NCBI GenBank assembly: GCA_965218295.1
Contig: CBDCKN010000003.1
Location: 64,001-128,000, forward strand
Length of the DNA: 64,000 bases
Reading direction: 5' to 3'
Source of the DNA: Longimicrobiales bacterium
GTDB taxonomy: Bacteria; Gemmatimonadota; Gemmatimonadetes; Longimicrobiales; Gaopeijiaceae
This document shows positions 55,378 to 59,216 of the stretch, piece after piece. The position numbers and the translations under genes were made by a program. The stretch's first letter is position 1; every line of letters begins with the position of its first letter. The notes under the pieces are model-generated. The model saw only the letters and a program-made list of their open reading frames with translations. It did not search any database and had not been told where the DNA came from.

Positions 55378-55413
55378 GGGGATCCTTAGAGTGTGGGGGA
55401 TCCTTAGAGTGTG
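55378..55413. repeat. Perfect 18-nt tandem duplication GGGGATCCTTAGAGTGTG
   Basis: Copies at 55378-55395 and 55396-55413. Confidence 0.9.
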
Positions 55414-55575: not shown

Positions 55576-56295
55576 ATGCCCTATCTGATGCTTCAGAGTG
55601 CCGGCCTCTCGGAGAGCCTCTCCCAGAGCCCGCTCCTGTCGCTGGCGACGCTGTTCGGCGCCGGCGTCCTGACCAGCCTGACACCCTGCATCTATCCGAT
55701 GATCCCGATCACCGCGTCGATACTGGCAGGTACGGCGGAACAGGACGCTCCGAGGTCCAGGGTCGTGGGCCTCACGCTCACCTACGTAATGGGCCTGGCC
55801 CTGCTCTATGCCACGGCGGGTCTCATCGCCGGCCTGACGGGTACCCTGTTCGGGACGATCAGCGCCAGCCCCTGGACCCGCTTCGCCATCGGTAACCTGC
55901 TTCTGGTGTTCGGGTTGGTGATGTTCGACATCATCCCGGTTTCCGCTCCAAAGCGCTGGCTCGAATGGGCCGGTGGCTTGGGAGGCGGGTCCTACCCTGC
56001 GGTGTTTCTCCTGGGAGCCACATCGGGGATCGTGGCGGCACCCTGTGGGGCTCCGGCGTTCGCCGTGGTCCTCACCTGGGTGGCGGCCACGCAGGCGGGG
56101 GCGATGGGCTTTCTCTACCTCTTCGTCTTCTCTCTGGGAATGACGGCTCTGCTGGTGGGCGTGGGCCTGTTCTCCGGCTTCGGAGTGGCCCTCCCATCGT
56201 CCGGTGCCTGGATGGTCTGGATCAAACGGGCCGCTGCGGTGATTATGCTGGTGATGGCCGAGTACTACTTCGTACAGGTAGGCATGGTACTGTGA
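55576..56295 (+). CDS. CcdA/DsbD-beta membrane electron transporter
   Basis: SLTPCIYPMIP and VAAPCGAP; about 6 TM. Confidence 0.92.
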   Translation: MPYLMLQSAGLSESLSQSPLLSLATLFGAGVLTSLTPCIYPMIPITASILAGTAEQDAPRSRVVGLTLTYVMGLALLYATAGLIAGLTGTLFGTISASPWTRFAIGNLLLVFGLVMFDIIPVSAPKRWLEWAGGLGGGSYPAVFLLGATSGIVAAPCGAPAFAVVLTWVAATQAGAMGFLYLFVFSLGMTALLVGVGLFSGFGVALPSSGAWMVWIKRAAAVIMLVMAEYYFVQVGMVL

Positions 56296-56855
56296 ACGCG
56301 ATCGATCTCCGCGCCCCGTGGCATCCGTTTACGGATGCCCTTCCCTATTTGGCCCCTACCATGGCACTCGCGATGATCGCGATCCTGCCCGCCGATGCCT
56401 CCGCACAAAAGCGGGGAGAAGTGGGCATCGCCCTGGGCGAGCGACCGGAGCTGGTGGAGATCGAGGACCTGGATGGGAATCCGTTCAAGCTGGCGGACCA
56501 CGTCGGGGAAAAGCCCCTCCTGATCGAGTTCTACGCCCGATGGTGCGAGAACTGCGAGGCGCTCCTGCCGCGGATGATCGACGTGTACGACCGGTACCGG
56601 GACCGGATCGAGTTCCTGGCCATCAGCGTCGCCGTGTCGCAGTCGCCCCGATCGGTCAAGCGAGCACTCGAGGAGCATCCCGTCGACTATGCCACGGTCT
56701 GGGACGAAGGTGGCCGTGCGGTGCGGGCCTTCCTGGCCCCTGCCACGTCCTACATCGTGGTCCTAGACACCGAGGGCGTCGTGACCTATACGGGAGTCGG
56801 ACCGGAACAGGACATCGAGGCGGCGGTCATGACCGCCCTGGAGGGGACCGACTAG
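56292..56855 (+). CDS. Exported TlpA-like thioredoxin
   Basis: FYARWCENC; signal-like segment; GTGA overlap with the ccdA-like stop. Confidence 0.88.
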   Translation: MNAIDLRAPWHPFTDALPYLAPTMALAMIAILPADASAQKRGEVGIALGERPELVEIEDLDGNPFKLADHVGEKPLLIEFYARWCENCEALLPRMIDVYDRYRDRIEFLAISVAVSQSPRSVKRALEEHPVDYATVWDEGGRAVRAFLAPATSYIVVLDTEGVVTYTGVGPEQDIEAAVMTALEGTD

Positions 56856-57448
56856 GGATCCTCCATGCCTTCGTCCAGTGCCGGCGCCACACGGGCGACT
56901 TCGGCTCCGAGCTCCTCGTAGGCCGAGGGGTCGATCCCCCGAAACTGGAGGGCGGTCCACGCGACCCTGCCATCCGGACCGATCACGATCACCGACCGGG
57001 ACGCGATGTTCCCGCTGGAGCGGAGCCCGAGACCATAGGCCTGGGCCACTGCATGACCCTTGTCGTGGGCGAGCAGGACGGGAAAGTCGGCGTCGGCAGC
57101 CCAAGAGGCCAGCTCTTCGGGCGAGTCGTCGCTGATGCCGATGACCGTCACTCCTCGGCCGCCCCGGAATACGCTTGCGTACTGATCACGGTACGCTTCC
57201 ATTTGGATCGTTCAGCCACGCGTTCGCGCTCTGAAGAAGAACGCCAGTACCACCGCCTCTCCCCTCAAATCCGACAAGCGGACCGGATCCTGGAGGATTC
57301 CGTAGCGGGTTGCACCGGGCAGGGAGAAATCCGGCGCCGTCTCACCCACGGCAATGAGGGTGGATTCTTGGTCCTGCGCGGCCGTGGGTTGGGCGAAAGC
57401 GAGTCCCAAGGAAATGACGAAGACGAATGCAGTACAGCGTAGTCGCAT
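56852..57448 (-). CDS. Exported peroxiredoxin-like (BCP/AhpC-TSA) selenoprotein, Sec at UGA 57212-57214 (198 aa)
   Basis: Two track ORFs are in frame across one TGA: GETAPDFSL...AFFFRARTRG-U-TIQMEAY...IGISDD...ASRSVIVIGPDG. The TGA sits at the peroxidatic TxxC position. Confidence 0.9.
57177..57196 (-). promoter_or_regulatory. Putative bacterial SECIS hairpin
   Basis: GCGTAC-CGTGATCA-GTACGC starting 15 nt after the UGA; G in loop position 2. Confidence 0.7.
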
Positions 57449-57512: not shown

Positions 57513-58268
57513 ATGACGCGCATTACTCTCGTTCTCATACTGGCCACCTCGGGCGTCCTCTCCGTCATCCGACTGAGCGCCCAAGTGCCGTCGGCGCCGG
57601 GCCCTGCGGACGGTGTCGTCGCCTCCAGCTTCGCCGCGGAATCCGGCCAAGGCGCCGGCGCCATGGAGGACGCCATCGTGGAGGAGCACAACCGCGCCCG
57701 CCAGGACCCGAAGGGGTACGCAGCCGACCTCGAGGCCCTGAGGAGGCAGTTCGACGGCAGGCTGCTCCGCTTCCCCGGGGAGCCGAGCATCCTCACGCGG
57801 GAAGGGGTGGCAGCTGTAGACGATGCCATCGACTACCTGAGAGACGCAGATCCGCTTCCGGCCCTCATCTCGTCCGAAGGCATGTCGCAGGCAGCCGAGG
57901 ACCACGTCCGTGACCAGGGCCCGAAGGGCGCCACTGGGCACGACGGGAGCGACGGCTCCAAGCCCTGGGACCGGGTCGGCCGCTATGGCACCTGGGACGT
58001 GGTGGTCGGTGAGAACCTCTCTTACAGACCCGCCCGGGCGCGGCGGGTTGTCATGGGCCTCATCATCGACGACGACGTGCCCGACCGTGGCCACCGCAAG
58101 AACATCTTCAGCGACGAGTTCCGGTTCATCGGTGTCGCCTGCGGCCCCCACCGGACTTTCCGCACCATGTGCACCATCGACTATGCCGCGGACTTCACCG
58201 AGGACTTGGACTCCTCCAGCTTCGGAGATGGCGAGGGGGCCCGCGACGACCCCCCGGCCTTCAGGTGA
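57513..58268 (+). CDS. Exported CAP/SCP-domain protein
   Basis: EHNRARQDP, GHDGSDGS, GENLSY, LIIDDDVPDRGHRKNIF, GVACGPH. Confidence 0.9.
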   Translation: MTRITLVLILATSGVLSVIRLSAQVPSAPGPADGVVASSFAAESGQGAGAMEDAIVEEHNRARQDPKGYAADLEALRRQFDGRLLRFPGEPSILTREGVAAVDDAIDYLRDADPLPALISSEGMSQAAEDHVRDQGPKGATGHDGSDGSKPWDRVGRYGTWDVVVGENLSYRPARARRVVMGLIIDDDVPDRGHRKNIFSDEFRFIGVACGPHRTFRTMCTIDYAADFTEDLDSSSFGDGEGARDDPPAFR

Positions 58269-58370: not shown

Positions 58371-59015
58371 TCAGTTGATGGCGAAGCAGTAGAAGAGGCC
58401 GTCGCCGCCGGTGCCCTGGAGGTTCTCCTGGCTGCAGCCCCTGGAGGCGTGCGCGGAGTTCCAGGACGTGGGGTTCGCGCCGCCACCCTGACGGTCGTGA
58501 TGGCCAACCAGCGCACTACCCTCTCCATGGCTGGTCCAGTTGGAGCAGGTCGTGTCGTCTCCGGCTGAAGCCGCTGTGCCATCCATTTGAGAGCCCGTGA
58601 TGATGTCGTGGCGGTTGGGGCTATCGCCCCGGCCGTTGATCGTCAAACCCATTTCCGAGAGCTGGGTCTCCTTGGTGAGGTTGTTCGAGTCGCTGTGCAG
58701 GTTCGCCACGTTGTCTGCGATCCGGACGCCACGGGAGTTGTACCACGGGCCGTCACCGATACGGTCTCGTGCGTCGACCCCACCCCCTCCGGTGGTGCTC
58801 AGGTAGGCCCGCCACGTGCGTTCTTCATCGCCGCCCACGGCCCGAGCAAGCATCCGGCAGTACCGGTCCGCGCCCTCGAGACCACCCAGGTCGGCTCCGT
58901 TTCCGGGACCCGTGCTCGTAAGGAAGAAGCTCATGGCGGGCTCTTGAACGGACCTCGGGCTCGAGCCCAGCAAGACCAGCGGAACGGCGGCTAGAAGAAA
59001 TCGCATCTTGCTCAT
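58371..59015 (-). CDS. Exported C-type-lectin/endostatin-like protein
   Basis: DLGGLEGADRYC, WRAYLST, HDIITGS, TCSNWTS, SWNSAH, LFYCFA. Confidence 0.85.
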   Translation of the reverse strand: MSKMRFLLAAVPLVLLGSSPRSVQEPAMSFFLTSTGPGNGADLGGLEGADRYCRMLARAVGGDEERTWRAYLSTTGGGGVDARDRIGDGPWYNSRGVRIADNVANLHSDSNNLTKETQLSEMGLTINGRGDSPNRHDIITGSQMDGTAASAGDDTTCSNWTSHGEGSALVGHHDRQGGGANPTSWNSAHASRGCSQENLQGTGGDGLFYCFAIN

Positions 59016-59216
59016 GTCGGCTCTCCTCTCGTTTGTGACGTCAGGCGCCCAGTATACGAGCAACCTGGCTGAAAAAGAAATAGTGGGTGCCGGGTGTGGG
59101 GGGAGCTCCCGGACGGAGGACGTGGGGTTCGACGAGCGCGGTGTATCCGTCTCCCGACGGCAACATCATCTGAGTCGGAGAGCGGTGCGGCGTCGACGCG
59201 CATTCGACCTAACGCT

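Follow-up and report, generated by a model that had tools for sequence, protein, structure and literature searches.

A likely exported selenocysteine peroxiredoxin-like protein encoded opposite a CcdA–TlpA gene pair in Gemmatimonadota

Within the 64,000-nucleotide stretch of Longimicrobiales DNA analyzed here (the window), a minus-strand reading frame with an in-frame UGA codon runs toward a ccdA-tlpA gene pair on the plus strand, raising the questions of whether the UGA is read as selenocysteine (Sec), where the protein acts, and whether it draws electrons from the proteins encoded by the facing pair. The frame (56852..57448, minus strand) spans 198 residues and holds one UGA only, at codon 79 (57212..57214, minus strand) in the context TRG-U-TIQ. 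Its product matches the AhpC-TSA domain PF00578 at 92.4 bits (cut-off 26), and in alignments the UGA column coincides with the peroxidatic Cys of archaeal BCP proteins (2cx3/2ywn) and with the Cys of 58 Gemmatimonadota homologues, in agreement with the peroxidatic position proposed by the sequence-only reading of this locus. At Thr76 of the resulting TxxU motif (57221..57223, minus strand), 234 of 235 homologues have T or S, and Arg151 (56996..56998, minus strand), the conserved catalytic Arg of peroxiredoxins that was also picked out from the sequence, is found in every one of 28 aligned homologues. A structure model of residues 32–190, for which the input was a 28-row alignment carrying C in place of U, reached a pLDDT of 96.2, and its best structural matches are BCP and other peroxiredoxins (TM 0.78–0.83 for the top four), predicting a peroxiredoxin fold of the BCP/PrxQ type. 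These matches share 22–28% identity with the Sec protein, which falls below every NCBIfam cut-off.

A hairpin had been noted 15 nt downstream of the UGA, and we locate it at 57196-57177 on the minus strand, after a 15-nt spacer, as a SECIS-like element with a 6-bp stem (GCGUAC/8-nt loop/GUACGC) and G in the second position of the loop. The stem is fully paired in 177 of 177 homologues with TGA versus 3 of 58 with Cys, with a median stem pairing probability of 0.98 in Sec forms versus 0.00 in Cys forms. The loop G is invariant among Sec forms, and the accessible part of PMC1794560 mentions a conserved apical G in bacterial SECIS elements. Hairpin stability showed no excess over shuffled sequences (z −0.09 to 0.33), and no covariation was found in the stem across the 177 TGA homologues, in which the stem sequence never varies; because it is invariant, the argument for the hairpin is one of synonymous constraint and not of covariation. 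Measured against same-gene background, the hairpin codons of Sec forms are strongly biased (GCG in 177/177 vs 45%, CGT in 172/177 vs 10%, and GAT in 172/177 vs 26%), whereas Cys forms of the main clade relax to background codons (CGT 2/40, GAT 8/40). When 161 distinct Sec rows were folded to a consensus over positions −30 to +48, this hairpin was the only structure obtained, with nothing longer. Rare codons also surround the UGA outside the hairpin (57203-57226 in the window, and in homologues), with CGA or AGG at −4 in 130 of 177 Sec forms, a preference for CGT or CCT at −2, and CAA at +3 in 115 of 177 (11% background); the consensus fold does not explain them. The hairpin was also matched as a terminator-like site on the plus strand, with 0.9 such matches expected by chance, and a promoter scan found no promoter. 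Contigs of relatives accumulate on the conserved hairpin in RNA runs, a depth that we do not use as a measure of expression since contigs cannot give expression levels.

Homologues at E 1e-22 or better are present in 262 of 301 Gemmatimonadota genomes, a tally that counts one unpublished genome, G190, on which no other result rests; the assignment of the phylum to Gemmatimonadota comes from named records. We compared 235 distinct Gemmatimonadota homologues, of which 177 carry TGA and 58 carry Cys, a ratio that is not a population estimate, the 250 loci from which they come being best hits (the best 80 of 573) plus hand picks enriched for Cys forms. Three observations had been named in advance as speaking against selenocysteine, namely a genome without Sec machinery, reads with TGC or TGT at the codon, and close homologues that never have TGA, and the Sec reading withstood all of them: the genome has selA, selB, selD, and the Sec tRNA (selC), each above its curated cut-off; contigs of four runs span the codon with no other letter listed there; and TGA is what close homologues most often have. 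Among genomes of Cys orthologues (94–100% complete), selA was not found in three of five and is present in the other two.

If the UGA were instead a true stop, in a split gene or a pseudogene, or a sequencing error, the public gene calls would be right to end at this codon, and the short database homologues listed, 120 in number and all fragments, would fit as well, 103 of them stopping at the codon and 17 starting after it. These are also the split entries that standard gene callers had been expected to produce here. A stop at this position would, however, remove the catalytic residue, and neither a stop nor an error sits well with the same TGA and a fixed hairpin in 177 homologues from six families, with a complete Sec machinery in the genome, or with the lack of any listed variant at the codon in contigs of four runs. 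We regard this alternative as very improbable and consider the UGA of the gene at 57448-56852 to be almost certainly read as selenocysteine.

Two further genes of the same genome contain an in-frame UGA. One (L308; G000:C3:514146-514547, plus strand) encodes a second AhpC-TSA protein with the UxxC motif GHW-U-PWC, a lipoprotein-like N-terminus, and scores below all NCBIfam cut-offs; it is probably a Prx-like thiol:disulfide oxidoreductase selenoprotein. The other is selD itself (L010; G000:C15:340010-340930, minus strand), with a TGA in GAG-U-ASK and a downstream hairpin of different sequence.

The location of the protein is suggested by its N-terminus. Residues 1–24 (57377..57448, minus strand) resemble a type I signal peptide, by eye and by a crude heuristic, with a basic start, a hydrophobic core, and the sequence AQPTAA-Q, in which cleavage would fall at AA-Q. 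The same heuristic, crude and not a dedicated predictor, is positive in 184 of 234 homologues, and most of the 50 heuristic-negative homologues printed still have a hydrophobic core ahead of AQ or QQ. A database fragment (P0007) begins at the same Met as this predicted signal peptide, and the cytoplasmic BCP paralogues of the same organisms begin at the domain. The signal-like N-terminus recognized in the sequence-only reading is thus present, with export a prediction from it, and the Sec protein is likely exported.

At the other end of the gene, its TAG and that of tlpA are shared in a CTAG (56852-56855), as had been observed, but this overlap is absent from both congeners, in which an extra 73 bases between 56856 and 56857 keep the two stops apart. 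The congener proteins are 21 residues longer and end in Cys, while the sole Cys of the window's Sec protein, C5, lies within the predicted signal peptide. The mature chain is therefore free of Cys here, as had also been stated, but because of the deletion relative to congeners both this property and the CTAG overlap are strain-level features of this allele. Contigs of four runs span the short junction, their 30 letters on the short side being one fewer than the bridging rule asks for, and the long form is also present in one of the four runs; the 73-bp deletion looks like a real strain variant. We considered the shared CTAG as a functional link to TlpA and rejected it, since it arises from this deletion. 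Acidic C-terminal tails ending in Cys (DC, GGC, GDCD) were seen in L024, L025, L027, L028, L195, L201, L204, and L229. As only 8 of 177 Sec homologues have a Cys-ending tail, which the window's allele has lost, the family can do without the C-terminal Cys, an optional resolving residue at most.

Facing the Sec gene on the plus strand are ccdA (55576..56295) and tlpA (56292..56855). The former encodes a 239-residue CcdA that consists of the DsbD transmembrane domain only (PF02683, 134.2 bits) with both Pro-Cys motifs intact (Cys codons at 55687 and 56044), and the latter a TlpA/ResA-like thioredoxin with a WCENC motif (Cys codons at 56544 and 56553) and a signal-peptide-like N-terminus. The GTG start of tlpA overlaps the ccdA stop, with an ATG at 56361 as an alternative start. 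Being convergent, the Sec gene and ccdA-tlpA are not co-transcribed. Of the 164 Sec loci whose downstream flank reaches 1.7 kb or more, 98 have the pair facing the Sec gene, 86 of them directly and the other 12 within a few kb, and the arrangement was seen in all six families sampled. Counting the handle-named genomes alone, many of whose loci have 1.5-kb flanks only, the pair is found at 40 of 102 Sec loci, with high frequencies in families f1, f3, f7, and f8 and low frequencies in f4 (10/38) and f5 (2/22). In a set of 112 wide loci, ccdA-tlpA is present in 57–58 of 74 Sec loci. The convergent pair was found at 0 of 56 Cys loci, and a comparison of independent pairs gave no association between Sec and convergent synteny (p about 1). 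In a separate clade of Cys paralogues, 11 of 18 members are co-directional with tlpA/ccdA, mostly in the order ccdA-tlpA-prx, and two further loci of this kind were found.

Several other features of these loci deserve mention. Tandem paralogue pairs (Cys + Sec, Cys + Cys, Sec + Sec) occur at L126, L147, L148, L146, L187, and L262. The gene is also found in records whose titles name Gammaproteobacteria or Acidobacteria (L208, L209, L210, L252); since two of these loci, L208 and L209, match loci of family-f1 genomes exactly, old record titles are a more likely explanation than transfer. In the window, a divergent CAP-domain gene with a signal-like N-terminus (57513-58268, plus strand) adjoins the Sec gene, an arrangement shared only with L024 and L199 among the loci printed; an 18-bp head-to-tail duplication lies upstream of ccdA (55378-55413, by eye); and a 230-residue ORF (58371-59063, minus strand) has a signal-like stretch and a weak DUF1554 match below cut-off.

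Gene content across genomes follows the same association. Orthologues of both TlpA and CcdA are present in 24 of 24 Prx-positive genomes, chosen for having no pair beside the best Prx hit, versus 1 of 20 Prx-negative genomes. A CcdA orthologue was found in 1 of 29 further Prx-negative genomes (10 + 19), giving 2 of 49 in all, and both exceptions lie at or near contig ends: the contig of G249 ends directly after tlpA, and ccdA of G009 points to an end 600 bases away. Linked genes can go missing together from fragmented genomes, and other classes account for 17 of the 29, which reduces the firm co-absences to those of family f2 (8/8, one of them the single-contig genome G039), family f9 (3/3), and the single-contig genome G160.

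The reading that we favor, and hold to be probable on these genomic patterns, is that the Sec enzyme, likely exported, reduces peroxides in the envelope with electrons from CcdA and TlpA. In such a relay, the Sec79 selenolate would attack ROOH to form a selenenic acid. This allele being without a resolving Cys, a selenenyl-sulfide would arise between Sec79 and the first Cys of the WCENC motif of TlpA and be resolved by the second WCENC Cys; electrons from cytoplasmic thioredoxin would then return TlpA to its reduced form by way of CcdA. This chemistry is carried over by analogy from known Prx and PprX chemistry and from 1-Cys Prx recycling, as described in the accessible parts of PMC3322552 and PMC4749874. 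The same flow of electrons, from CcdA through TlpA to a 1-Sec peroxiredoxin, had been suggested from the window alone and gains support from the conserved synteny, the second, co-directional arrangement, and the co-occurrence, while staying a genomic argument. A complex prediction for a Cys-form Prx with its operon TlpA (L172), in which the Sec protein itself was not folded, scored 0.17 against a mark of 0.32 and is used neither for nor against the relay.

Two other accounts accept the selenoprotein and differ from the favored reading in what surrounds it. In one, CcdA and TlpA serve another client, in cytochrome c or copper-oxidase maturation, the peroxiredoxin is recycled by a different thioredoxin-like protein or a small thiol, and the neighborhood is merely inherited gene order. 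ResA and TlpA do act in cytochrome c or copper-oxidase maturation elsewhere. The best NCBIfam match of the window's TlpA is ResA, below its cut-off, and TlpA acts in aa3 oxidase maturation in Bradyrhizobium (according to the accessible part of PMC3322552); the convergent orientation, the 66 of 164 Sec loci with no ccdA-tlpA nearby, and the other TlpA-like proteins encoded in the genome, which are possible alternative donors, would all be in keeping with this account. On the other hand, this account fits poorly with the other neighbor families, each found in at most 15 of the 112 wide loci (antisense shadows of the Sec gene excepted), with the second, co-directional arrangement at the Cys paralogue, and with the 47 of 49 Prx-negative genomes in which no CcdA orthologue was found, including the firm co-absences of f2, f9, and G160. 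Moreover, the window's genome encodes two other CcdA paralogues and, at other sites, cytochrome c assembly genes, so there is no need to assign the CcdA of the pair to cytochrome c. We consider a different client unlikely.

The remaining account concerns the substrate, and it starts from a substitution that the sequence-only reading overlooked. The Pro of PxxxTxxC, seven residues before the peroxidatic residue and called absolutely conserved in peroxiredoxins in the accessible part of PMC4749874, is replaced in the window's protein by Phe72 (57233..57235, minus strand; aligned to 2cx3/2ywn), and the canonical Pro is thus absent. All 58 Cys forms have Pro at this position versus 10 of 177 Sec forms, the other 167 carrying Phe, Tyr, Ile, or Val, and Pro is also present in those Cys forms, such as L079, that branch within groups of Sec/aromatic forms. 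On two trees built with the motif columns masked, the second from 85 of the 235 rows with one per genus and motif state, Sec and Cys forms are interleaved, with 12–14 changes. Independent supported pairs linking Sec with Pro loss numbered 4 and 5, which is not significant (p 0.125); the pairs agreed or tied, and none ran in the opposite direction. With the more reactive Sec in place, the active-site Pro is probably less needed. Alternatively, CcdA and TlpA may feed the protein while H2O2 is not its main substrate, the enzyme reducing some other envelope substrate such as bulky or anionic peroxides, peroxynitrite, oxidized sulfur species, or oxidized proteins. The aromatic residue in place of Pro and the basic active-site loop R-A-R-T-R-G-U would point that way, as would the near-general replacement of Pro among Sec forms, the Arg or Lys found at position −4 in 177 of 177 of them, and the precedent of Caulobacter PrxL, an ScsB-dependent peroxiredoxin-like protein whose function is given as unknown in the accessible part of PMC3322552. 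Yet Thr/Ser and Arg are retained, and on both trees the close Cys orthologues, 58 of 58 with the full PxxxTxxC motif, interleave with the Sec forms, a pattern suggestive of one shared function. A main substrate other than H2O2 appears to us unlikely.

Taken at its widest, the favored relay would make up a dedicated, class-wide module of three genes in Gemmatimonadota, carrying cytoplasmic electrons by way of CcdA and then TlpA to an exported selenium peroxidase in which Sec lifts the Pro requirement and every Cys form keeps or regains Pro; we see the chances of this broader proposal as evenly balanced.

Parts of this relay have counterparts in known systems. In Caulobacter crescentus, ScsB, TlpA, and PprX make up an envelope peroxide-reduction pathway (Cho et al. 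2012, PMC3322552, accessible in part), which resembles the system proposed here in pairing a BCP/PrxQ-type Prx with a signal peptide (predicted here), TlpA as the donor (a role assigned here from genomics, as is the relay as a whole), and a membrane carrier of the DsbD superfamily. The two differ in the carrier, a bare, transmembrane-only CcdA here versus the three-domain ScsB, and, in comparison with PprX as there described, in the catalytic residue (Sec), in the Phe at the Pro of PxxxTxxC, and in the resolving Cys, which is lacking in the window's allele while PprX has an internal disulfide. Among selenoproteins, the accessible part of PMC13188914 lists a bacterial family "Peroxiredoxin (Prx), PF00578, TxxU," with PrxU of Eubacterium acidaminophilum as its prototype, and our protein has PF00578 and TxxU, the features by which its table defines that family, and also shares with it one Sec and a SECIS-like hairpin downstream. 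It is not, however, the PrxU equivalog NF040737 (41.2 bits vs a cut-off of 270). That review, in the same part, presents PxxxTxxU as a highly conserved motif and the reduction of H2O2 as intracellular, with no occurrence of either "periplasm" or "Gemmatimonad," whereas the protein described here has lost the Pro and is predicted to be exported. From the 1-Cys BCP/PrxQ and AhpE proteins (PDB 2cx3, 3hjp, 5enu, 1xxu), whose fold it is predicted to share, with the same Thr/Arg placement, at 22–28% identity, it differs in Sec, in the predicted signal peptide, and in the aromatic residue in place of Pro; 1-Cys peroxiredoxins are recycled by the Cys of another protein or by a small thiol (PMC4749874, accessible in part). 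Set against the canonical peroxiredoxin described in that same portion, Pxxx(T/S)xxC plus Arg, the protein has Thr76, Arg151, and the predicted fold and differs in the Pro, and we infer that it works like a canonical peroxiredoxin despite this difference.

Sec peroxiredoxins (TxxU) and the envelope ScsB-TlpA-PprX pathway are thus each known, and a literature search on periplasmic or exported Sec peroxiredoxins together with CcdA, with most subscription papers outside its coverage, found no report of the combination. Judged from their listings, publications on Gemmatimonad selenocysteine or selenoproteins include none that concerns the Sec peroxiredoxin family, though selenoprotein survey tables or Table S1 of PMC3322552 may list family members.

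With both building blocks known, the relay proposed here would be an extension of known biology, carried by a gene that databases store as two fragments. The Sec/aromatic and Cys/Pro forms are natural variants for asking why the peroxiredoxin Pro is conserved and what Sec gives to a catalyst, and if Sec does lift the Pro requirement, the family is a natural experiment on the effect of Sec in an enzyme active site. If the favored reading is true, a widespread and little-studied bacterial class would have a selenium-dependent peroxide defense in its cell envelope.
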